Virus record (IMG/VR): IMGVR_UViG_3300046786_000521
Location: 1 to 32,038 of that record
DNA from: a virus
Lineage: Duplodnaviria; Caudoviricetes
Length of the DNA: 32,038 nt
Direction: 5' to 3' (one strand)
The notes under the pieces were generated by a model, which was given only the letters and a program-made list of their open reading frames with translations, ran no database searches and was not told the DNA's origin. The position numbers and the translations under genes were made by a program. Numbering within the stretch: the stretch's first letter is position 1; each line of letters begins with the position of its first letter. Below, piece after piece: positions 114-32,038 of the stretch.

Positions 114-144
114 TTTGTAATTTGATGTGGCTTTTATATCTTTG
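114..144 (+). promoter_or_regulatory. Bacteroidota-type promoter, -33 TTTG and -7 TATCTTTG
   Basis: TTTG 114-117, 19-nt spacer, TATCTTTG 137-144. Confidence 0.65.
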
Positions 145-148
145 CACC

Positions 149-212
149 GATATACAAATTAATAACTTGTGTACGGTTTCTTTAGGGTAGGGGTGGTTCC
201 CTACCTTTTTTT
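149..212 (+). ncRNA. Candidate small RNA 1
   Basis: Promoter upstream; 5' hairpin TATACAA/TTGTGTA (151-157/167-173); terminator hairpin plus T7; no ORF. Confidence 0.45.
186..212 (+). terminator. Intrinsic terminator
   Basis: GGTAGGG-gtggtt-CCCTACC followed by TTTTTTT. Confidence 0.65.
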
Positions 213-455
213 ATTTAAGCGATATTCAGTTATGCGCGTCTTTTTACCATAATGCGTGATGTATGGCTTTGTTTCATACCCAATATCCCATCCGTCCTCA
301 ATCAAATCTTTAATCCTGCGCGGAGTGGCTGAATTAGATATAAATAGTTTTCGCATCGCATCTACTGTTGTAATGCGTTTGAACTTTTTTAGATAATTAA
401 GCAGTGCTTGCTTTTGTGTCGGATTGGCAATTTTGCCTTGATTGATTGGTTTCAT
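201..455 (-). CDS. Winged helix-turn-helix protein (HTH_39-like)
   Basis: TQKQALLNYL..ITTVDA..RRIKDL..GWDI..EYRL pattern typical of phage wHTH proteins. Confidence 0.7.
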   Translation of the reverse strand: MKPINQGKIANPTQKQALLNYLKKFKRITTVDAMRKLFISNSATPRRIKDLIEDGWDIGYETKPYITHYGKKTRITEYRLNKKR

Positions 456-585
456 TGGTTATTTTAGTTTTAGTGAGAAATAGTAGTTTTTGATCGTATC
501 GGTCATAATATTTTAGAACATCATATTCTTCCCAAGTCCATTCAAATTGCTTCCATAATTTCAATTGCTCTTGTTCCTGCGTCAT
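397..585 (-). CDS. Hypothetical protein (62 aa)
   Basis: ATG at 585 overlaps the exonuclease stop (ATGA coupling); overlaps the next gene by 59 nt. Confidence 0.5.
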   Translation of the reverse strand: MTQEQEQLKLWKQFEWTWEEYDVLKYYDRYDQKLLFLTKTKITNETNQSRQNCQSDTKASTA

Positions 586-1286
586 AATTCGATTGTTTGG
601 TAGAAATTTCGGCATTTCTCTATTTGCGTGATAAGATGTGCTATTTTGTTATCATCGTGGCTTATTTCGAATGTTTTAAGCCTTTTTTGAGCAGGAATAT
701 GACTGAATGTATGATTCTTTTCAATCTGCTCACAAATGCGCTGATATTCTTTATTATTCTCATCGCATCCGAACTTAAAAAAGTAACGCTTTTGTTCTTC
801 TTGGATAATTTCCAATGGTGTATCAATCAAAGCATAGCGCAATCGTGCTTTTGTTGCTCCTGTAAGCCACATATACCCACGTAACTGCCATTCATATATC
901 TTGGTCATTTCAGCCTCTGCATAGGATTTAATAGTGAATGAACATTTGGTATCTTCCACAATTGTTTCGCCATTGTCAGTAATTACCAAGTCAGGACTTC
1001 CCATAATATAATCATTCTTTAAGATACCACCTTTGAACTTCTCGCGGAAGATCCCATCATTGGCAACATCCTGAACTAATTGCATCGCATCCTGTTCGCA
1101 TAGCAATCCTTTGAGCATAGCATCAGTGACAACTATCTCATCGTAGCCATATTCATTCTTCAGCCAAATTTCTTTGATGTATGTCTTTGTAGTTTCGGAA
1201 AGCAATCCTGCTTCCTTATCAGCCTTTAATTTAGGCTCGGTCATTAATTTGCCCAATTGAGAGCAACGGAATAATACTTGATTCAT
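582..1286 (-). CDS. YqaJ/lambda-type PD-(D/E)xK exonuclease
   Basis: FRCSQLG, GSPD, EDTKC, YEWQLRGYMWLTG motifs; close to RecT; start set at the ATG after the CTACCACT leader. Confidence 0.8.
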   Translation of the reverse strand: MNQVLFRCSQLGKLMTEPKLKADKEAGLLSETTKTYIKEIWLKNEYGYDEIVVTDAMLKGLLCEQDAMQLVQDVANDGIFREKFKGGILKNDYIMGSPDLVITDNGETIVEDTKCSFTIKSYAEAEMTKIYEWQLRGYMWLTGATKARLRYALIDTPLEIIQEEQKRYFFKFGCDENNKEYQRICEQIEKNHTFSHIPAQKRLKTFEISHDDNKIAHLITQIEKCRNFYQTIEL

Positions 1287-1325
1287 AGTGGTAGTAGTGT
1301 TATTGGTCAGCAAATATGCAAGATA

Positions 1326-1547
1326 TTATTCAATAATTGTGCTTTTCAATTCAACTTTATTCCACATATCATTGTGGATAGTTAAGAATTCAACCCACGT
1401 ATCGTAGGTTTCCTGCGCTTTGCTGATTTCATTGGCATAAAATGGCTTTGATTCTTTACAATACCCATTTTCATCAAATAGGCGCACATAAATCCATTCT
1501 ACATTGTTAATGCCCGTTTCGCTTGATAGTGTTACTTTGTACTTCAT
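1326..1547 (-). CDS. Hypothetical protein
   Basis: 73-aa ORF preceded by the repeated leader motif. Confidence 0.7.
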   Translation of the reverse strand: MKYKVTLSSETGINNVEWIYVRLFDENGYCKESKPFYANEISKAQETYDTWVEFLTIHNDMWNKVELKSTIIE

Positions 1548-1639
1548 AGTGGTAGTTTTTATTTGTTTATTATTTACGTTTTTAGTGTTTTTGTTGATTT
1601 TAATCTACAAGTCAAGTTTTTGGAACCATTTACTTGACA

Positions 1640-2542
1640 TTATTTGTTTTTAGTTGGTTTCTTAGTCAATTCTTCCCTTCTCTCTTGGATAGCATCATAA
1701 CATCCATTCCCTACCGCAGTGTCCTCAAACGCATCTAATTCTTCTGCTGTGCCTAATTTCTTGATATGTGCAACAATGCGCTCACGTTCCTTGCGATTAT
1801 TGACTTCATCGATATCCATTGTGATTTTATCATTGTCAATGTATTCGACTTGATTTGTATCAGCATCCAATACCACTGCTTGATCGCTAATAACTGCCTT
1901 TTGCATTTCTACCGAAAGTGGAGCAAATTTGGATAGTAATAATTTAAGCACGGTTTTACTTGCCATTGCATCGAAATCATCCTTCCACAATCCATATCCT
2001 TTAGCAAATGTTTGGCTAAATTTCTTTCCGTGTGCAGTCAATTCCTCCGTTGACATAAACAAGGTGTTTTCTGCTCCATTAATAAGTTTAAAATAAGAAG
2101 CATATCCTACAATCTTGTCACTTGTTTTTTTGCTAAAATCGAACTTATATCCTGTTAATGGATTGGCTTCTATAATTTGTCCTTCATAAATCTTGGAAGA
2201 TGAAATAGTCAAAAATTGTCCTGAACGATAAGCTAATTGGATAAACGCCTTATATCCCATTTGAAACTGAGCAACCGTCTTATAACTTCCATCCTTTTGG
2301 CGTTGGTTGTAAGGTACAATATAGGCGAATCCAAGCGAATTATTCAATGGTAGGTCCAATGTAGCGGCTACTGCTGCTGATTGGTACACCGACATTGGTT
2401 CGGCTTTCTTTAATAAATCATTTGATGCGACAATCTGCAATACTGATGTAATAAATTGTGGCGCACGTTTGCCTAACATTTCTTTGAACTTATCCTGAAC
2501 GGACATTTGTGCAAAGAATTCTTTAGTAGTTAAATTTGACAT
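1640..2542 (-). CDS. recT: RecT-family single-strand annealing protein
   Basis: LGFAYIVPY, AQFQMGYKAFIQLAYRSG, W..DFDAMASKTVLKLLLSKFAPLS. Confidence 0.9.
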   Translation of the reverse strand: MSNLTTKEFFAQMSVQDKFKEMLGKRAPQFITSVLQIVASNDLLKKAEPMSVYQSAAVAATLDLPLNNSLGFAYIVPYNQRQKDGSYKTVAQFQMGYKAFIQLAYRSGQFLTISSSKIYEGQIIEANPLTGYKFDFSKKTSDKIVGYASYFKLINGAENTLFMSTEELTAHGKKFSQTFAKGYGLWKDDFDAMASKTVLKLLLSKFAPLSVEMQKAVISDQAVVLDADTNQVEYIDNDKITMDIDEVNNRKERERIVAHIKKLGTAEELDAFEDTAVGNGCYDAIQERREELTKKPTKNK

Positions 2543-2617
2543 AGTTGCTTGGTTTTGTTGGTGTAAAATTACAAATTAAGGATGGTATTTTGTGGGCAAA
2601 TTACCCACAGCATAGTG

Positions 2618-2842
2618 TTAACAAGTCATTGGAACATCCGTGTAATTAGTTGTTGAACCATCGCGATTGATTGAATGATGTAATCTTACTTTTGGTTTAT
2701 CCTGCGATACCTCTCTCCAATACTTTTTGCCATTGACAATATACCATTCCCATTTTCTTCCATTGCCCGGAATCAAGAAAGCATAGCGGAATGTTTCACT
2801 ATTTAATAATCGGTAGTAGATTAATTTGAATAATTTTTTCAT
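2618..2842 (-). CDS. Hypothetical protein
   Basis: 74-aa ORF, ATGA-coupled to the upstream gene. Confidence 0.65.
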   Translation of the reverse strand: MKKLFKLIYYRLLNSETFRYAFLIPGNGRKWEWYIVNGKKYWREVSQDKPKVRLHHSINRDGSTTNYTDVPMTC

Positions 2843-3024
2843 TGTTCGTCAATTTTAGAATTTAAAAAGTCAACTAAATGTTCGGTGTGGATTGCTCGGT
2901 TATTACTGAATTCACATCCGAATTTACGCAATTTTGCATATTGAACATAGAATGTAACCTGTACTTTCTTGTCATCATTGCTAACAGGCTTCCTTCCTCG
3001 TTTGATTGTTTTTGTTTTTGGCAT
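2839..3024 (-). CDS. Small putative DNA-binding protein (ribbon-helix-helix-like)
   Basis: RGRKP followed by a beta-strand-like KVQVTFYV. Confidence 0.5.
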   Translation of the reverse strand: MPKTKTIKRGRKPVSNDDKKVQVTFYVQYAKLRKFGCEFSNNRAIHTEHLVDFLNSKIDEQ

Positions 3025-3048
3025 TTGATTAGTTTTTGTCGGGAAGTG

Positions 3049-3099
3049 GTGGGGTAGTGTTATCTGCTAACTGCCTACCCCACATTCAACCGAGCAGAT
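3049..3099 (-). other. Structured intergenic RNA element (pseudoknot or alternative folds)
   Basis: GTGGGGTAG/CTACCCCAC 9-bp stem interleaved with ATCTGCT/AGCAGAT 7-bp stem. Confidence 0.45.
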
Positions 3100-3395
3100 T
3101 AGTTATTCCAATTATCTTCAGCAGTTTCAAGTAGTGTATTGCAGATAATATCGTGCATCAAACTATTTTTTAGCACTGAATCTGCTATGCTTATAAAATG
3201 GTTATCATGTTGTAATACTACATCGTGGATAGCTTCAATCTCGTAGTGGAATTCGATTGGAGTGAATAAGTCATCCTCATCGCGTTCCCATCCTTCAATT
3301 ACTTCTAATAATGTGTAAGTAACGAAGATTTCATAGCCATTGTCATCACTAATTGGGGAAGTGATTTTTTTCTCTTTGGTGATAGTTTTGCTCAT
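3099..3395 (-). CDS. Hypothetical acidic protein
   Basis: 98-aa ORF with an A/C-rich leader. Confidence 0.7.
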   Translation of the reverse strand: MSKTITKEKKITSPISDDNGYEIFVTYTLLEVIEGWERDEDDLFTPIEFHYEIEAIHDVVLQHDNHFISIADSVLKNSLMHDIICNTLLETAEDNWNN

Positions 3396-3409
3396 TGTAT
3401 TTGTTGGTT

Positions 3410-3643
3410 TTAATTAATTGAACAATCGATTGATAAAGTAGCGTAGTTTAAGCCTAATTGGTTGATCATAGCATCAATTAGTTGTCCTGAATAGGTGCGC
3501 TTTAAATCTACTTCTATTTGAAGCATATTAACGGATGCGTAGTTATGCTCGTGCCATTGACCATTTTCATCCATAACTTCAACTTGAACAGGAATACCTG
3601 CAATAAGATTTAATTCGATTTCGGTGTAGATGTTGTTTTTCAT
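3410..3643 (-). CDS. Hypothetical protein (77 aa)
   Basis: Start reassigned to the ATG inside the leader repeat. Confidence 0.7.
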   Translation of the reverse strand: MKNNIYTEIELNLIAGIPVQVEVMDENGQWHEHNYASVNMLQIEVDLKRTYSGQLIDAMINQLGLNYATLSIDCSIN

Positions 3644-3701
3644 TGTGGTAGGTTTTATTTGTTTATGTGCGTGATGGATGCGCACCCCCATTAAAATAAT
3701 A

Positions 3702-3977
3702 TTAATCAAACATTTCAATATGAGATGTATCAATTTTAAGTTCACTACAAGCATCAAATCCTTTATCAGTAAGCACCATCATAGGAGATTGTTTTTGCTC
3801 ATAAGCTCCATAATCAGAGCAGTCCCATACAAGACCTTTTTTTACTAAAGAACCTAAAGCTCCTTTTTCCTCGTTAGTAATGGCAAGTGCTGAAAAACAA
3901 GTGTAATTGCATTCATCTTGGCAGTTAGCTACTTTAGTAATTACTTTGATTTCTAATTGTGTTAAAATGTTTTTCAT
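3702..3977 (-). CDS. Hypothetical protein, winged-helix-like
   Basis: KGALGSLVKKGLV...LTDKG resembles a wHTH recognition helix and wing; starts in a leader repeat. Confidence 0.6.
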   Translation of the reverse strand: MKNILTQLEIKVITKVANCQDECNYTCFSALAITNEEKGALGSLVKKGLVWDCSDYGAYEQKQSPMMVLTDKGFDACSELKIDTSHIEMFD

Positions 3978-3988
3978 TGTGGTAGGTT

Positions 3989-4156
3989 TTAATTGTTATT
4001 GTTTATTTCGTCTAAAAATTTTGCTTTAATTAATTCTATATCTTCAATCCACATTTCTTTTGTTTCATTACTCAGTTTTGATAAATGTTCATTAAGGAAA
4101 TGAAATGCAGTGTTTATTACAATAATGTCATGTTTTGTTAATTCTACTTGTTTCAT
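3989..4156 (-). CDS. Hypothetical protein (55 aa)
   Basis: Start in one leader repeat, stop in the next. Confidence 0.65.
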   Translation of the reverse strand: MKQVELTKHDIIVINTAFHFLNEHLSKLSNETKEMWIEDIELIKAKFLDEINNNN

Positions 4157-4195
4157 TGTGGTAGGTTTTAATTGTTTTTTGATTGTTTGGTAGAA

Positions 4196-4226
4196 CAAAG
4201 ATATGGTGCGATTTTACATTTTGCAA
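4196..4226 (-). promoter_or_regulatory. Bacteroidota-type promoter for the small-gene and recombination operon
   Basis: TTG (4226-4224), 20-nt spacer, TATCTTTG (4203-4196). Confidence 0.7.
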
Positions 4227-6237: not shown

Positions 6238-8046
6238 TTATACGAGTGTAAATGTTTTAGTAGTCGCGCCAACACGCATTTTTAAGTTGGTTCCATCATA
6301 CCAAATATCACCATCAGCAGGAGCAGATGGATTTGTACCTACGGATGTTTTTAAGTTGATTTGCGCATATCCTGTGGTGTTTGCTCCAATATGCAATAAT
6401 GCCGATGCAGGATTTAATGCACCTGCCGTATCAATCGAAGTACGCATATAATGTTGGACAAAACGATAAGAACTTGAAGTGTTAAACAAATCATATCTTA
6501 TTGCTACATCATAAGCCGTGAAAGTAGAATTGGTAGGCATTGCCCACTCAATATTCTTCTCGTGTGTTCCTGATAATGTACTAATACGCAATTGTATTTG
6601 CGGAACTGTTGCAGTATAACCAAAAAGTGACCTATTTGCTAATGTAAAAATAGGATATATCCAAGGAGCATTAAACGATGAATTATGTGTCATCATTATA
6701 CCGAAGTTACCACTTGCAAAAGATACAGCAGTACCTGCCGCTCCTGAAAATGATGTAGCACTTGCTGAGCCTGTCATAGCGTTTAATATCAATGACCTGC
6801 TTACGCCATTATTCCACAAAATAGTTTGTGTAGTAGTAAATGTGTTTGCTGTTCCAAACAAATTGAACCACGCAGGATTACCACTTTGTACTTGAAGAAT
6901 AAAACCATTAGTACCTATCCCTAATCTTGTTGGGGTTCCACTTGCTCCTCCATATATAATATCACCTGCAGTAGTCATTGGATTGGTCATACCTCCACTT
7001 GAAACAGTTGCCCAACTTGTAGTTGTTCCATTGGTGGTTAGATATTTTCCACTATTGCCTGTTTGAGATGGTAATAATCCATCCGCAGTGTAAGTAGGGA
7101 TATTTAGTGTATTGCTCACAAAAGTAGCAGAACCACTACTACCTGTTGTTGTTAGTGTAATTTGTGCTTGTGGCGTATATCCTAAAATCGTGGCAATTGT
7201 TTTATTCTTCCATAAGGTAGTAGAACTTTCATAAGTAAGAATATCATTATTTGTAGGTGTAGCAATGGCAACATCGTGCAATTCGTCTAATTCATATCCA
7301 TTTTGAATACGTAATACAATTGTACCATTTGTCGGTGATGTTCTCGTAACTACTCCAATATAAACAAGATGATTTGGAGCCGATGGTTTCACATTCGTTA
7401 CGTAACCTGCATTATTTGGGTCTAAATATAACTTATCTCCATCTGCTAATGTGACAGCAGTAATTGGATGTGGTGCTGTTGTACGTGTATCTAAATTATC
7501 AACAAATCCTGCGCACATAACATACCCATCCGTATTATTTGGCATATCCGCTAAAATCATCCCAAATGTACCTGCTGATGTTGACTCAGCATTGGCCCGT
7601 GATAATGTAAAATTAGGTCTATTACCTGTTGAACCACTAATATAAACAATCGAACCTTTATATAAGGTTGCGCCTGTTGAATTTCTGCCTAAAATAGTAA
7701 TTCCTTCTGCTTTATCAACTACCCCTGAATTATCCGTATCATAAACGGACTTTTGCATTACATCAGTAAATGCAACCCCACTATCTTTAATTAATTTGCC
7801 TGTTGTTCCATCAAATAGAACGACATCGCCATCTACTGACGAAGCAGGACCAACAACATCCCCTACAATTGCAGGTAATGTTGGCTTGTTTTTAATGTAC
7901 GCATAAGATGTAATATCCGTTTCCGTCCAATCTGCTTGTACCTGTTCAGGTAAATCAGCATAGTTCAATTTTTGACGCGATAATTCCACCAATTTATTTT
8001 GGATATATTGGAAGGAATAAACAGGATATACTTTTTGCGTTGACAT
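6238..8046 (-). CDS. Tail fibre / receptor-binding protein
   Basis: Thr/Ser/Gly-rich modular protein; QADW..YIKNKP, GDVVGPASS..FDGTTGKLIKDSG, QNGYELDELHDV, GDIWYDGT fibre-type motifs. Confidence 0.75.
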   Translation of the reverse strand: MSTQKVYPVYSFQYIQNKLVELSRQKLNYADLPEQVQADWTETDITSYAYIKNKPTLPAIVGDVVGPASSVDGDVVLFDGTTGKLIKDSGVAFTDVMQKSVYDTDNSGVVDKAEGITILGRNSTGATLYKGSIVYISGSTGNRPNFTLSRANAESTSAGTFGMILADMPNNTDGYVMCAGFVDNLDTRTTAPHPITAVTLADGDKLYLDPNNAGYVTNVKPSAPNHLVYIGVVTRTSPTNGTIVLRIQNGYELDELHDVAIATPTNNDILTYESSTTLWKNKTIATILGYTPQAQITLTTTGSSGSATFVSNTLNIPTYTADGLLPSQTGNSGKYLTTNGTTTSWATVSSGGMTNPMTTAGDIIYGGASGTPTRLGIGTNGFILQVQSGNPAWFNLFGTANTFTTTQTILWNNGVSRSLILNAMTGSASATSFSGAAGTAVSFASGNFGIMMTHNSSFNAPWIYPIFTLANRSLFGYTATVPQIQLRISTLSGTHEKNIEWAMPTNSTFTAYDVAIRYDLFNTSSSYRFVQHYMRTSIDTAGALNPASALLHIGANTTGYAQINLKTSVGTNPSAPADGDIWYDGTNLKMRVGATTKTFTLV

Positions 8047-13941: not shown

Positions 13942-14559
13942 ATGAATAAAGTTGAATTAATTGGGCATTATGGCAATGACCAAATCCACGCACAATCTGC
14001 TTGGACTTCCACAAGCAGAGATTTAACAATAAAAAAAGTTGAACGCATACCTGCTTTGTTGACTATGTTAGCAAAGGAAGGACACCACACGCCATTTGAG
14101 AAAAGCAGTTTGCATTTTTTAGTGACTATTGATCAAGCAACGCACATCCATTTATTGAAACATCGCATCGGGGTGAGCATCAATGGTGAATCTGCGCGAT
14201 ATAAAGAACTTAAGGAAGATAAATATTATATGCCTGAAGATTGGAATGAAAAATGGACGAATGCGCTGTTTACTTATACTAATTTAGGCAACACATTATA
14301 TCACGAATGCTTGGCTGATTTAACCCCTATTTTAGGTCGCAAAAGAGCAAAGGAATCCGCGCGATTCTTTAAGACAATGAATTCGCAGATTACTATGGAT
14401 ATAATGTTCAATTGGCGCAGTTTTGTTCACTTCCTGCACCTTCGTGATTCGGAACACGCGCAGGTTGAAGTACGCAATGTGGCTCGGCAAATGTTGGAGC
14501 AAGTAAAATCAATCAATGGAAATCCATTTGAATATACAATTAAAGCATTTAACCTATGA
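13942..14559 (+). CDS. thyX: Flavin-dependent thymidylate synthase
   Basis: GHHTPFE, KHRIGVSINGESARY (ThyX motif variant), KESAR, NWRSFVHFLHLR..HAQ.EVR. Confidence 0.92.
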   Translation: MNKVELIGHYGNDQIHAQSAWTSTSRDLTIKKVERIPALLTMLAKEGHHTPFEKSSLHFLVTIDQATHIHLLKHRIGVSINGESARYKELKEDKYYMPEDWNEKWTNALFTYTNLGNTLYHECLADLTPILGRKRAKESARFFKTMNSQITMDIMFNWRSFVHFLHLRDSEHAQVEVRNVARQMLEQVKSINGNPFEYTIKAFNL

Positions 14560-14744
14560 ATTCACACCTACTTGAATCCGTTATTAGCGATTTAGAAAGC
14601 AGAGAGCAACGCGGAATAGCAAAATATAATACCACGATGGACCGAAGCGATTTAACGCATAAAGAGTGGTTACAACACGCATACGAGGAAGCATTGGATA
14701 TGGCATTGTACTTAAAAAAAGCAATAACTGAATCGGAACAATAA
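14556..14744 (+). CDS. Small all-alpha protein, MazG/NTP-pyrophosphatase-like
   Basis: R..RG..KY and EEALD (EExxD); ATGA-coupled to thyX. Confidence 0.55.
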   Translation: MNSHLLESVISDLESREQRGIAKYNTTMDRSDLTHKEWLQHAYEEALDMALYLKKAITESEQ

Positions 14745-14778
14745 CCTAATTTTCGCATAACTTAATAACCTAATTTTC
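14740..14778 (+). repeat. 15-bp direct repeat AATAACCTAATTTTC, two copies
   Basis: 14740-14754 and 14764-14778, with a partial ATAACTTAAT between. Confidence 0.8.
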
Positions 14779-14801
14779 AAACAATAAAAACAACAAAAAC
14801 A

Positions 14802-15062
14802 ATGATTGAATTAAATCAAAAACCTGAACCTGTATTTGCAGATGGCATCTTATTCAAGCGCAGTCCAAATGCTCCTGATTTTGTAATCGGTCAAATGTCC
14901 TTTAAAGTGGAGGAAGCCATTAATTTTTTGAAAGCCAATTCAAAGAATGGATGGGTGAATGTGGATATTAAGCGTGGTCGCTCGGGTAAGGAATATGTGC
15001 AACTAAGCACTTACGAACCAAAGCCAAAACCAACTTCTACACACGATGATTCACCATTCTAA
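14802..15062 (+). CDS. Putative single-stranded DNA-binding protein
   Basis: Beta-rich core, Pro-rich linker, SSB-like C-terminal DDSPF. Confidence 0.5.
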   Translation: MIELNQKPEPVFADGILFKRSPNAPDFVIGQMSFKVEEAINFLKANSKNGWVNVDIKRGRSGKEYVQLSTYEPKPKPTSTHDDSPF

Positions 15063-15330
15063 TCCACAACAATGTCAGTTCTGCCATTCCGCAATGAGTG
15101 GCAGAAAGGACAAAAAATATTGTTCAAATAAATGCAGAAATATGGCTAACAATGGCAAATCTGATATTAACGATAGTCCAATAAAAATAAGCATTACCCT
15201 AAAGAATGTTCCACAGGACATTTACTGCTTATTGCTTGATAAACAAACTGAAATTAAGAAGAAAATTGGTGGTAACTTTGGACTTGAAGCAACCATCTAT
15301 AAATTATTGCGCGAAGCAGTTAAAAACTAA
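15046..15330 (+). CDS. Zinc-finger plus ribbon-helix-helix-like regulator
   Basis: CQFC..GRKDKKYCSNKC; ISITLKNVPQDIY...IYKLLREAV. Confidence 0.6.
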   Translation: MIHHSNPQQCQFCHSAMSGRKDKKYCSNKCRNMANNGKSDINDSPIKISITLKNVPQDIYCLLLDKQTEIKKKIGGNFGLEATIYKLLREAVKN

Positions 15331-15333
15331 CTT

Positions 15334-15426
15334 ATGAAGGAACTTCTATTATATCAATTCAGCAATATTTGTATTTGGGCATATACTAAAGAACAAGCCT
15401 TGCAAATATTAAATTTAATCAAATGA
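15334..15426 (+). CDS. Micro-ORF, 30 aa (MKELLLYQFSNICIWAYTKEQALQILNLIK)
   Basis: Fills the gap exactly; ATGA-coupled to the next gene; not in the ORF track. Confidence 0.55.
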   Translation: MKELLLYQFSNICIWAYTKEQALQILNLIK

Positions 15427-15800
15427 GCAAACTATTAACTTTTATTAAATCCTTTGGCTCTGCATTGGCATCCTCTATGGAAGATGCAGATTCATTAGCA
15501 GTAACGCGTATTTCTACTCCACAGGTTGAGAAAGTAGACAATTATTTGGGTAGTATGACAATTAAAAAAGGACATACCTTATTCAAAATTGAAACAAGCG
15601 ATGAACCTGCTGATGGATTTATATATCATTCCCCGACTTGCACCTTTATTAAGGTAGAAAAACATAAGCGAGAATTGAATGACATTGGCAATATCATTGC
15701 TGAATTAAAGCAAGGTCATTTGTATGTATCAGCCTTGAATGAGAAGAATGCGTTGAAATGGTATGCGAAGAACTTTTCTTCGTTAGCTTGGAAATCTTGA
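15423..15800 (+). CDS. Hypothetical protein
   Basis: 125-aa ORF ending the inverted cassette; 18-nt convergent overlap with the MuF-like gene. Confidence 0.65.
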   Translation: MSKLLTFIKSFGSALASSMEDADSLAVTRISTPQVEKVDNYLGSMTIKKGHTLFKIETSDEPADGFIYHSPTCTFIKVEKHKRELNDIGNIIAELKQGHLYVSALNEKNALKWYAKNFSSLAWKS

Positions 15801-27563: not shown

Positions 27564-27610
27564 CAAATATACTTATTCACACCAATTAGTGGAAAATAAT
27601 TGTATTTTTG
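27564..27610. promoter_or_regulatory. Back-to-back -7 boxes
   Basis: Minus TATATTTG 27571-27564; plus TATTTTTG 27603-27610; no clear -33 boxes. Confidence 0.5.
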
Positions 27611-27614
27611 TTAC

Positions 27615-27685
27615 GCATTGCGGGGTGGTAGCCGTAGTGGTTGGTTATTGGGAAAGGGGGTGCAGAAATGTGCCTCCTTTTTTTT
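27615..27685 (+). ncRNA. Candidate small RNA 2
   Basis: -7 box upstream, G/U-rich body, plus-strand-specific terminator. Confidence 0.5.
27656..27685 (+). terminator. Intrinsic terminator with a GAAA tetraloop
   Basis: GGGGGTGCA-GAAA-TGTGCCTCC-T8; its three G-U pairs form only on the plus strand. Confidence 0.7.
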
Positions 27686-28925
27686 ATTTAGCCTTTAGGA
27701 ACCATCCCATAAAACTATTGCACCAATATCTGAACGTATCTAACGCATCGGCTTGTTGTGTTGCATCTGCACGATTGCTTTTTTCAATCTTGCCATCCTC
27801 ACTGATTTTCACGTTTTTAAGGTCATAAATCAGTGCTTTTGCCTTTTTATCTTGGATTTGTACCCCATAATTGGCTAACAAACTATTAACTAATACCTGA
27901 TTCTCTTGAATTGGTGGATTTATGATTGGCTGACGCATTTGTCCACTTCCTAAACGCAATCGGGTACGAATAACTGTATAATAGTTCAAATTGTCCTTGA
28001 CTAATGCTGATGTGTTTCGTCCTGTAGCATCCCCTGTGACAATGTATAGACAATTTGGGTAGTATGATAGGATGTAATCACATAGTGCGTAAATGTCGGA
28101 ATTTTCGAGTTTGATAGTTTCCAATACCCATATGGTCCTATCGTAATGTTGGACAACACTACACGAAATGGGATTCTTGTTAAAGTCAAATGATAGGTAA
28201 ACAGGCTCATTCTTATTAAGGTTGATTGGTTGATCAGTAACGTGCTTTTTGCTATCAAATGCAAATGCCCACAGCATTCCTTTCAAGTCCACATCCTCTG
28301 CCAAATATTCGCAACGGAAATATAAATCACTCATTGTTCGCTTGGCAGAATCTACCTCGCTTGATAGAATATGCGGATTGTCATAAGTTGTAAATGTCCA
28401 CGATTGCCATTCGTGGCTGAAATCAGGATTATCTCGCAAATGATATAGTTCTTTGAAATAGGTATCGCCAAATTTAGGGGTAGACAAGAACCACGCATCC
28501 CCTACATAGTCGGTTAGTGTCGCACGGATGGTACCATTCCACGCTTGTTCCAACTTACGCGCCTTTTCGCACTCATCAATCACCACGCGTTTGTACTTTC
28601 TACCTCGTCCACTATCAGGCTCATCCAATGACCACATATCAATAACTCCACCTGTGATCAATCGGATTTGTTTCAACTGCTCATTCTTAGATGCAATAAC
28701 TTCATAGCACGTTTCGGTTATTACGCGCCAAAAGTCCGCTAAGTCCTTGTAAGTTGGGGAATAGTATGCAACAGGGAAGCCATCTAAAGCAGGCTCAATG
28801 ATTAGTTCTTCTGCTAATGATGTTTTCCCAAATCTTCGACCACATTTTAGTACATTGAAACGCTTGGCAGTTTGAATGATGTGTTCCTGATTAACGTGCC
28901 TACTTTTTAATTTGACTGTCTTCAC
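27684..28925 (-). CDS. terL: Terminase large subunit
   Basis: Walker A GRRFGKT, Walker B VVIDE, LSTP coupling motif, SFDFN and DALD..RY nuclease motifs. Confidence 0.93.
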   Translation of the reverse strand: MKTVKLKSRHVNQEHIIQTAKRFNVLKCGRRFGKTSLAEELIIEPALDGFPVAYYSPTYKDLADFWRVITETCYEVIASKNEQLKQIRLITGGVIDMWSLDEPDSGRGRKYKRVVIDECEKARKLEQAWNGTIRATLTDYVGDAWFLSTPKFGDTYFKELYHLRDNPDFSHEWQSWTFTTYDNPHILSSEVDSAKRTMSDLYFRCEYLAEDVDLKGMLWAFAFDSKKHVTDQPINLNKNEPVYLSFDFNKNPISCSVVQHYDRTIWVLETIKLENSDIYALCDYILSYYPNCLYIVTGDATGRNTSALVKDNLNYYTVIRTRLRLGSGQMRQPIINPPIQENQVLVNSLLANYGVQIQDKKAKALIYDLKNVKISEDGKIEKSNRADATQQADALDTFRYWCNSFMGWFLKAK

Positions 28926-30210: not shown

Positions 30211-30813
30211 TTACCATTTGCCCTCTTTTACTTCATAAAATCCAACTTTATACTTGATTTGCTCATTGTATAGGCGAATTGCATCTTGCTCATCCTCAAT
30301 TACCCAACCTAAATTCAGAAATCTAACGCAATCATCACAATTGCAAGGTGACTTATCACGATAGACGCGCTTCCATATGCGTTGCAAAAACCAATCCATT
30401 GGAAGAATCTCCAATCCTTTCTTGTTTTCTAATGGATGGGTAGTCATTTCTGACTTCATCATCTCTGACCTGTACTTTTTTAGATATCCTGCCATATATT
30501 CACGCATATATTGGTTGCGCTTTTCCTTGCGGATATTGGCTGATTCTTCTTGCGTTTGAACAACTACATCTTCAGATGATGTTTTTTCTGCCTTTTTAAT
30601 GCTTTTACGCTTCTTAAAGATTTCTGACGATAAAATGTACTCTACTTCTCCATTCTTGCGTCTAATCGGATAAAAAGTGCTTCTGCTGCTATCGTACATC
30701 ATATTCACCTTGATGTACATTGTGTCCTTCAGCACATACAATCGCTTTTCTTCATAATTAATGAAGTAATTGTGCATTGTTTCAAAATCAAATGTTTTTG
30801 GTTCGTAGTTCAT
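30211..30813 (-). CDS. Hypothetical protein
   Basis: 200-aa basic ORF; RNQYMREYM and CNCDDC motifs. Confidence 0.7.
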   Translation of the reverse strand: MNYEPKTFDFETMHNYFINYEEKRLYVLKDTMYIKVNMMYDSSRSTFYPIRRKNGEVEYILSSEIFKKRKSIKKAEKTSSEDVVVQTQEESANIRKEKRNQYMREYMAGYLKKYRSEMMKSEMTTHPLENKKGLEILPMDWFLQRIWKRVYRDKSPCNCDDCVRFLNLGWVIEDEQDAIRLYNEQIKYKVGFYEVKEGKW

Positions 30814-30829
30814 ATTATTGGTCGGTTGA

Positions 30830-31771
30830 TTAAAAAAGTTTGGTTTGATTTAATAATGGTTGTATGCGCTTATTGGCAATTTTGATATATTCTTCACTCA
30901 TTTCACTACCGATAAATTGTCTATTGGCTCTGATGGATGCAATGGCTGTGCTTCCACTACCCATAAACGGATCATAAATAATCCCACCTTCAGGACATCC
31001 TGCTAAAATTGGTTTACGGATTAATTCATCATTATATTGGGCGTAATGTTTTTCTCCGCTTGGTTTGGTCTGAATATCCCAAAAATCTGCTACATCGCCC
31101 GGATTTTTACCTAATGGATTACAAAATCTATCACCCATTTTATCTGCATCAATTTCACCTATTGAATCGTGATTGGATTTCCAACCATATTCAATTCTTT
31201 GGATAGACGAATCTTTATGTTTACCTCTAACTGCATCCAAATCAAAATAATATTTTTTAGATTTTACCATAAAAAAGAAATATTCGTGCTTTTTAGTAAA
31301 TCTATCAGTTACAGGTTCAGGCATTCCATTTCTTTTTGCCCAAATAATATCATTTCTAACTATCCATCCGCGATCAATACATCCAATAGCAAATCTATGA
31401 GGAATTAAAATCAAACATTTATCTAAAAATCCTTTTTGTCCACCTCTGCCTGCTTTAGTTCCTGTTGAAACAATTGGTTGATCATTATATTTATTTTTCC
31501 TATCACCTGCCCAACCTGAATTATTATATGTATCTCCTAAATTAATCCATACTGTTCCTGATGGTTTTAATACGCGATATATTTCATCCATCATTTCCCA
31601 AAGATGTTCAAGATATTCTTTGAATGTTGGCTCTAATCCCCATTGACCTTCATATCCATAATCACGCAGTTGCCAATAAGGTGGTGATGAAATAACACAA
31701 TCAATGGAATTATCTTCCATTTTTCTCAATGTTTCAAGACACGGTTCTTGGTAAATTTTGTTTAGTTGCAT
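30830..31771 (-). CDS. DNA amino-methyltransferase (N4-C/N6-A, beta class)
   Basis: SPPY catalytic motif before the DPFMGSGST SAM-binding motif. Confidence 0.92.
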   Translation of the reverse strand: MQLNKIYQEPCLETLRKMEDNSIDCVISSPPYWQLRDYGYEGQWGLEPTFKEYLEHLWEMMDEIYRVLKPSGTVWINLGDTYNNSGWAGDRKNKYNDQPIVSTGTKAGRGGQKGFLDKCLILIPHRFAIGCIDRGWIVRNDIIWAKRNGMPEPVTDRFTKKHEYFFFMVKSKKYYFDLDAVRGKHKDSSIQRIEYGWKSNHDSIGEIDADKMGDRFCNPLGKNPGDVADFWDIQTKPSGEKHYAQYNDELIRKPILAGCPEGGIIYDPFMGSGSTAIASIRANRQFIGSEMSEEYIKIANKRIQPLLNQTKLF

Positions 31772-31780
31772 TTTGTTCGG

Positions 31781-32038
31781 TTATTTGTTTAAGTAAGAAA
31801 ATATGTGAGCAATGACATCAATTGTCCATCCATTGCCAAGCATTTTATGTGCTTGTGTTTTACTAATAATATTAGTATATCCTTCTTTTACCGTTTGAAG
31901 TTTCTCTACTTCATCTCTTTCAAGCATTCTTATTTTATCTTTTGTCTTGTTTAAATAATAGTTTTTTGAATGATTTTTAGCAGTTGTTAAACAATTAGAT
32001 TTGGATTCATAAATACTTTTAAGTTGATTCAATTTTAT
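31781..32038 (-). CDS. DNA cytosine-C5 methyltransferase, C-terminal part (cut by the window edge)
   Basis: IRML...EVEKLQT and KMLGNGWTIDVIAHIF resemble C5-MTase motifs IX and X. Confidence 0.75.
   Translation of the reverse strand: MKLNQLKSIYESKSNCLTTAKNHSKNYYLNKTKDKIRMLERDEVEKLQTVKEGYTNIISKTQAHKMLGNGWTIDVIAHIFSYLNK

Follow-up and report, generated by a model that had tools for sequence, protein, structure and literature searches.

A predicted 70-base phage RNA that may block translation of its own phage's early genes

Phage and Bacteroidota small RNAs and the candidate locus

The c4 RNA of phages P1 and P7 is a phage RNA of about 70-80 nt that acts on the phage's own mRNA. It exposes two short elements, one of them at the ribosome-binding region, and its specificity follows the exposed sequence; it has three stem-loops, RNase P releases it from a longer transcript, and it serves the immunity of temperate enterobacterial phages (excerpts of PMC5320573 and PMC12197685). 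P22 sar, lambda OOP and aQ are short phage transcripts made within an operon from an antisense promoter of their own, and each lowers the expression of one overlapping or adjacent phage gene (PMC12197685, in excerpt). VpdS of VP882 and PreS of lambda are phage sRNAs that act in trans to the benefit of phage development; they are Hfq-bound and act on host genes or host sRNAs, and in the sections of PMC12197685 that deal with them no start tag shared by the phage's own genes is described. The phage sRNAs presented in those sections have either a single phage gene or the host as their target. The strings 'Bacteroid' and 'Flavobacter' do not occur in the main text of PMC12197685, and the 38 sRNAs without function in its supplementary list may bear on the present unit. 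In Bacteroides thetaiotaomicron, MasB and GibS are chromosomal RNAs with host targets; they show that in Bacteroidota an mRNA can be repressed by base pairing with its 5' region, for MasB with proof by compensatory mutations (PMC10994844, in excerpt). Across the literature covered, in which few subscription journals are represented, we found no phage RNA aimed at a start tag shared by many of the phage's own genes.

Here we describe a unit at positions 27603-27685 (+) of the window, by which we mean the whole stretch of 32,038 nucleotides that was analysed, a single phage contig. Like c4, the predicted RNA is short, would act on the phage's own mRNA and exposes two short elements; unlike c4, it has one hairpin and a linker, a predicted promoter and terminator of its own, and about ten predicted tagged targets. 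In our model the unit works in the way of the P1 c4 RNA without belonging to the c4 family. No Rfam family reached its gathering score in the window, and the c4 covariance model was absent from the five Rfam matches at E values up to 10. Like sar, OOP and aQ, the predicted RNA would be a short transcript under its own antisense promoter, placed antisense within an operon, and it would overlap the terminase trailer on the opposite strand if the terminase transcript extends that far; in its conserved parts, however, short seeds correspond to start regions at a distance. VpdS and PreS act in trans, as we propose here for the unit. A CsrB/CsrC-type sponge was also considered, and was rejected (19.1 bits against 61; one loop, GGUGGUAG, and no repeated GGA loops).

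The window encodes terminase, portal, tape-measure, endolysin, RecT, exonuclease and methyltransferase genes, and the minus strand carries almost all of them. Among the minus-strand structural genes lies a five-gene island on the plus strand (13942-15800), made up of thymidylate synthase and four small genes, and two copies of AATAACCTAATTTTC, possibly an operator pair, lie between plus-strand genes at 14740-14785. We infer a Bacteroidota host because TAnnTTTG boxes stand before operons, because Shine-Dalgarno-like words occur in just 7% of leaders, and because the single genome match was a Chitinophagales bin, with a terminase identity of 51%. No cultured relative was found, the best terminase identity among annotated phages being 31%. 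In the relatives G001 and L306, replication-initiator-like and primase-helicase genes lie between what are the window's end and start, and the gene order therefore closes on itself. The first-pass annotation had placed the target genes 23-26 kb from the unit. This distance reflects where the contig was cut; in the relatives the gene order continues past the window's end into what is its start.

Throughout, 'early' refers to the block of small genes, exonuclease and RecT (201-4156) together with the genes at 30211-31927, a label taken from position and gene content.

The unit at 27603-27685: layout, promoter and conservation

On the plus strand the unit runs from a -7 box through a 5' hairpin and a linker to a terminator (27603-27685), and judged from its sequence it is likely to be a self-standing gene for a predicted 70-base RNA. 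The predicted promoter (27593..27610) combines AAAATAATTG with a -7 box behind it, TATTTTTG (27603-27610); boxes of the TAnnTTTG type number 12 on the window's plus strand, this one included. The Bacteroidota promoter consensus is TTTG/TANNTTTG (PMC6847099, in excerpt); the TTTG -33 element is missing upstream of the unit's box. Transcription is predicted to start at about 27616 (+), at the base of a 5' hairpin (27616..27639) with a predicted 8-bp stem, CAUUGCGG/CCGUAGUG. The 8-nt loop of this hairpin (27624..27631), unpaired with a probability of about 0.9, mirrors CUACCAC(U/A) and is referred to below as seed 1. Seed 2 is the unpaired linker GUUGGUUAUUGG(G) (27640..27652), which mirrors leader tags of the CCAAUAACCAAC type and has a perfect 12-nt match to one leader of G001. 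The intrinsic terminator (27653..27685) contains G-U pairs, ends in an 8-U tail and abuts the stop codon of the terminase large subunit gene on the opposite strand (27684..28925, -; phrog_2, E 1.9e-30). In three runs from the study that yielded the contig, no contig covered 27200-28200, a result that we count neither for nor against transcription.

The whole unit folded at -30.5 kcal/mol on the plus strand (z -4.83; 0/200 shuffles as good), versus -8.7 kcal/mol on the minus strand (z -0.14; 92/200). For the terminator the values were -18.5 kcal/mol (z -4.43; 0/200) and -6.2 kcal/mol (z -1.02; 35/200), respectively, in agreement with the first-pass annotation, according to which the terminator folds well on the plus strand only. 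The sequences quoted there, the plus-strand -7 box included, were all found where it had put them. It had also seen no credible plus-strand gene, and this view held: the single plus-strand ORF across the unit (27589-27828, 79 aa) was considered as a gene and rejected, as it is frameshifted in G001. On the minus strand the 10-codon ORF that it had read, MRNKNTIIFH, does exist (27586..27618) and overlaps the RNA's plus-strand promoter. The ORF is unchanged in close relatives, as the promoter block is the same in them, no ATG stands at the matching position in the L030/L332 locus, and we regard it as probably incidental.

A divergent -7 box, TATATTTG (27564..27571, -), lies 31 bp from that of the RNA and heads a gene block leading to the tape-measure and portal genes. 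The interval between the two divergent boxes (27572-27602) holds an imperfect inverted repeat, a similar one being present in L332; it is possible that this repeat is a shared activator site for both promoters. The -33 TTTG is present at the first early promoter (4203), whereas five boxes before lysis and structural genes are without it, as is the RNA's promoter, which has one of these five at its back. A clean 'late promoter' class was tried and rejected, since the AAATAATT extension is also found elsewhere and some of its bearers have TTG at -33. In G004, G013, G014 and G018 this extension precedes genes at the small-terminase position or genes that follow the terminase. A second promoter-hairpin-terminator unit, with both a -33 TTTG and a -7 box, is located at 137-210 (+), antisense between a winged-helix gene and a promoter at 48. 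It is kept in G001, L223 and L306, its terminator is similar to the one in the L332 unit, and its position suggests a role in the control of the replication gene.

Terminase searches yielded 40 viral loci, 58 metagenome loci and one genome locus; the region behind the terminase was inspected in 34 of the 40 viral loci, in up to 33 of the 58 metagenome loci (seen in part) and in the genome locus. Among the loci inspected, the unit was present in L001 (from G001), L002 (from G002), L303, L304 and L306. Its body is the same as the window's in G002, L303, L304 and L306 and differs in G001 alone, and the loop GGUGGUAG is unchanged in all of them. In G001, 5/16 stem bases are changed and all 8 pairs are kept, by a compensatory double change from C-G to U-A and by changes from G-U to G-C, U-A to U-G and U-G to U-A; the terminator has one change, from G-U to A-U. 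Compared with the window, neither the loop (0/8 bases) nor the linker (0/13) is altered in G001, and the 47-bp promoter block has a single change (1/47), while 37/372 and 31/600 bases are changed in the flanking coding DNA. The G001 changes thus look like those expected when shape holds the stem of an RNA and sequence holds its open parts. They amount to one branch, because the clade has two distinct RNA haplotypes only.

Most of the other terminase relatives inspected had no such unit behind the terminase. In the distant phage L030/L332 (62% terminase identity), two divergent boxes stand 30 bp apart at the same post-terminase place, and the unit there has the same GAAAATAATT word, a body of its own and a terminator. 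The L332 locus carries, behind the terminase, a longer antisense unit of three hairpins (L332:8043-8145, -), which matches its own early starts weakly. Pattern scans of viral contigs for further members of the clade (91 + 50 stretches) returned G001 and G002 only, and a search with the gene downstream returned the same two and none else. A leader scan (81 stretches) found the repeated tag in no other phage.

Start-codon tags and predicted pairing

GTGGTAG occurs on the plus strand of the window at 1288, 1549, 3645, 3979, 4158, 27062 (inside a gene) and 27625 (in the candidate RNA). Read on the coding strand, 5/7 copies of CTACCAC have their end 0-5 nt ahead of a start codon (binomial p 5e-10); the same placement was found for 3/5 coding-strand copies in G001 and 5/9 in G002, and the tag stands before 1/1947 starts of other phage contigs. 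The body of the RNA had been said to resemble the antisense of the repeated leaders. That likeness is beyond chance, and is stronger than first described, the mirror sitting exactly in the 8-nt loop and a second seed lying in the linker. Three of the five CTACCAC leaders have a longer A-rich repeat in common, which could have spread by duplication. The tag is also found in front of accessory genes that occur in G001 alone (a helicase-methylase) or in G002 alone. A helicase-methylase fusion at L122:11781-13961 (-), a single-relative gene, has CTACCAC before its ATG, and a tag before the ATG was likewise seen for the accessory 406-aa gene and its neighbour at G002:C1:29167-31431.

The predicted targets are all minus-strand genes of the window. 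Both seeds are matched at the exonuclease start (1284..1306; phrog_5715), where CCAAUAAC and CUACCACU are present, and loop and linker are both predicted to pair with this leader; by predicted pairing it ranks 1st of 44 starts, at -14.5 kcal/mol. Seed 1 is predicted to pair before the ATG of a 73-aa gene (CUACCACU, 1545..1555; -9.6) and, at CUACCAC, before that of a 77-aa gene (3641..3651; -8.4), a 91-aa gene (3975..3985; -8.8) and a 55-aa gene (4154..4164; -8.9); the last of these genes comes first after the -33/-7 promoter at 4203. For seed 2 the predicted sites are at the start of a winged-helix gene (AAUAACCAAU, 453..463; PF14090; -8.5) and upstream of a 98-aa gene (AACCAAC, 3403..3409; -6.9), a 200-aa gene (AACCGACCA, 30819..30827; -9.8) and a DNA methyltransferase gene (AAUAACCGA, 31777..31785; PF01555; -6.9). 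In G001, L303 and L306 the site of the 200-aa gene reads AACCAACCA. The first-pass annotation had proposed five target genes; early start regions are indeed favoured in predicted pairing, but the likely set is larger than five because a second seed exists. A strong hairpin (-25.8 on the plus strand, -24.0 on the minus strand) was noticed at 3028-3098, before a 61-aa gene; on the plus strand it contains GUGGUGGGGUAGUG, near the seed-1 word.

Pairing energies were corrected for accessibility and computed with our own script, not with IntaRNA, and the sets of early starts were drawn by position. Predicted pairing averaged -6.6 kcal/mol for 13 early-type starts versus -2.6 kcal/mol for 32 others (p 0.0005), and the same bias was found in G001 (p 0.0003) and G002 (p 0.0006). 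When loop and linker were shuffled with stem and terminator kept, the early mean was equalled in 0/150 shuffles, the early-minus-other gap in 0/150 and the count of strong targets in 1/150; for shuffles of the whole body the figures were 0/100, 1/100 and 0/100. Early starts were thus favoured both over the other starts and over the shuffled controls. The 137-210 unit, when tested as an anti-leader RNA, showed no early-start bias (p 0.94) and no enrichment of start matches. The predicted pairings are 7-10 bp long. Exact 7-nt matches to the window's unit were found at 11/45 starts against a background of 5.7% (p 5e-5); at 8 nt the enrichment was marginal (3/45; p 0.04-0.05), and at 9 nt it was not significant (1/45).

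Some early-type starts scored poorly (RecT, -2.4; a 74-aa gene, -0.2; the last fragment, 0), and some late starts scored high (terminase, -9.3; a 302-aa gene, -7.6; a structural gene, -6.8). A check for co-variation of the RNA and the leaders among relatives had been proposed. Orthologous leader variants that leave G-U pairs were found for the 73-aa gene (two variants), the 98-aa gene and the 200-aa gene; they are consistent with pairing, though weak as support, because such transitions are common. The RecT leader of the window has lost its match to the RNA.

Analogous units, proposed mechanism and alternatives

Units made of a -7 box, a short body and a terminator were scanned for in 43 contigs or loci found via terminase, RecT or the leader motif; duplicates from one clade, extended forms of a unit already included and bodies below 15 nt were dropped, and 27 units were tested. 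Enrichment of 9-nt matches at the phage's own starts over foreign ones (p < 0.05) was found for five of the 27, those of G001, G007, G013, G021 and L307, where about 1.4 would be expected; the other 22, the window's own included, showed none. The own-start matches numbered 7/54 in G013 (background 2.3%), 4/23 in L307 (2.1%) and 5/67 in G007 (1.8%).

The layout of AAAATAATT, -7 box, hairpin, linker and terminator recurs in the unit of G013, a complete genome with 64% terminase identity, and the seed of this unit mirrors CUAUGAAAAC at its own starts. It is located before the early operon (G013:C1:29561-29635, +, equal to L380:10561-10635; also in L451-L465). In 12 further viral matches the seed is invariant and the terminator varies; one of these has a changed 3' arm, in which pairing is still possible. 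Lying on the strand of its neighbours, this unit can be no leader relic and no cis-antisense RNA. The L307 unit (L307:2521-2608, +) carries the hairpin loop UUCCAUUUGU, which mirrors ACAAAUGGAA at 3/23 starts, the three lying in the surrounding operon, versus 2/2069 foreign starts. In a cross table of seven RNAs, hand-picked after the matching results had been seen, six pair best with the early starts of their own lineage; the G006 RNA fails this test. The L030/L332 unit matched 4/18 starts at 8 nt (p 0.1), and its difference between early and other starts was not significant (p 0.07). Short antisense units at G007:C1:13220-13290 (+) and G006:C1:36670-36740 (+) mirror the RecT start over 13 nt and 11 nt, respectively, and the G006 unit may be a leader duplication. 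In L283, near 6799-6945, a tRNA-like sequence with a terminator lies on the antisense strand between two genes.

A covariance model joining the window RNA and the G013-type RNA recovered the training clades alone in 100 sources. The cross-clade alignment of the two was out of register, with 69% of cells paired, and the best 17-nt identity to G013 was 11, versus 12 to an unrelated unit. As these comparisons do not establish homology, we refer to the two units as analogues.

The unit has its own predicted promoter and intrinsic terminator and no conserved ORF, together with a conserved exposed seed whose complementarity is enriched at translation starts, features by which trans-acting sRNAs are classed. 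The best explanation, and one that on these sequence comparisons we hold to be moderately probable, is that of a trans-acting RNA that blocks the translation of early genes, probably late in infection. The loop would pair first, at -8 to -2 of the target leaders, and the linker would pair further upstream, at about -23 to -5. The paired RNA would mask the region that Bacteroidota ribosomes need unpaired, and so block ribosome loading. We expect repression because Bacteroidota ribosomes do without Shine-Dalgarno pairing and favour unpaired A-rich starts; A at -3 and -6 is positive and structure tunes translation in this group (PMC6847099, in excerpt). The RNA would probably fire when late transcription starts, given that its promoter is without the -33 element and lies back to back with the structural-gene promoter. 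The early-to-late switch of the first-pass annotation is plausible in this sense, from the promoter context only.

The same pairing could instead serve immunity or superinfection exclusion, by silencing the early genes of incoming relatives or of a non-integrated resident genome. The tags are common to G001, G002 and L223, so that the RNA would hit relatives, and the c4 RNA of P1/P7 serves immunity (PMC5320573, in excerpt). Yet a search of five records, of which two are at least 90% complete, found the tyrosine integrase PF00589 in none (0/5), and the lysogeny switch offered earlier thus finds no support in them; moreover, GTDB genomes contained no close prophage (1 match, 51% identity), and the -33 element, present at the first early promoter and in the 137-210 unit, is missing from the RNA's promoter. 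We consider this use unlikely. It is also quite unlikely that the unit works in cis only, its antisense transcript and terminator trimming the 3' end of the terminase mRNA or shielding it from the structural genes, in the manner of lambda OOP RNA, and its likeness to the leaders being incidental. Such a role would suit an RNA that is antisense to the terminase trailer, with a terminator abutting the stop codon, and the L030/L332 unit, which sits at the same place and matches its own starts weakly, fits it as well. However, the loop and linker are invariant on a drifting stem, although cis pairing needs no fixed sequence, and both the tag before five starts (p 5e-10) and the same-strand unit of G013 would be left unexplained.

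Two further readings assign the conserved parts to something other than RNA pairing by the plus strand. The minus strand may be the functional one, as a relic or live early-gene leader with its 10-codon ORF, in which case the terminator would be an ordinary one for stray antisense transcripts and the tag would have spread by cassette duplication. The minus strand does read as a leader followed by an ATG, three leaders share the longer repeat, hairpin-plus-leader layouts are common in these phages, and the G006 and G007 units adjoin leaders that resemble them. But the non-Watson-Crick pairs of the hairpin are G-U on the plus strand and A-C on the minus strand, the A-rich part of the repeat is absent at the unit, real leaders are unstructured, the other tagged leaders have in common the core alone, 1-4 nt from the ATG, and L030/L332 has no ATG at this place; together these points make a functional minus strand very unlikely in our view. 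Finally, the loop could be a protein site or decoy, Csr-like or phage-encoded, with CUACCAC in the leaders being the protein's site. An invariant loop on a drifting stem would fit this too, and there is the weak CsrC match of 19.1 bits; that score, however, stands against a gathering score of 61 and comes mostly from the terminator, the single loop is without GGA repeats, and the RNA carries the complement of the tag, not a copy of it. We regard a protein site as highly improbable.

Returning to a trans-acting RNA that represses early genes, it also seems possible, though we put this forward tentatively and do not expect it to hold as readily, that the unit is one instance of a master switch made of tag and mirror, in which the seed and the tag are rewritten together in each lineage. 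Short leader tags would enrol early genes, and newly gained genes would join by carrying the tag; the RNA with its two seeds, made from a promoter that stands back to back with that of the structural genes, would then shut off all tagged genes. The pairs of seed and tag would be specific to the lineage, with CUACCAC here, CUAUGAAAAC in G013 and ACAAAUGGAA in L307. If true, such a switch would also give lineage-specific exclusion of relatives. How early expression is shut off in phages without a known shut-off protein is largely an open question. Here, an RNA of 70 nt with two seeds has about ten predicted targets that are defined to the base, and a switch based on leader tags would work where Shine-Dalgarno occlusion cannot apply. 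It would, if true, be a compact and reprogrammable translational switch for the phage's own gene set.
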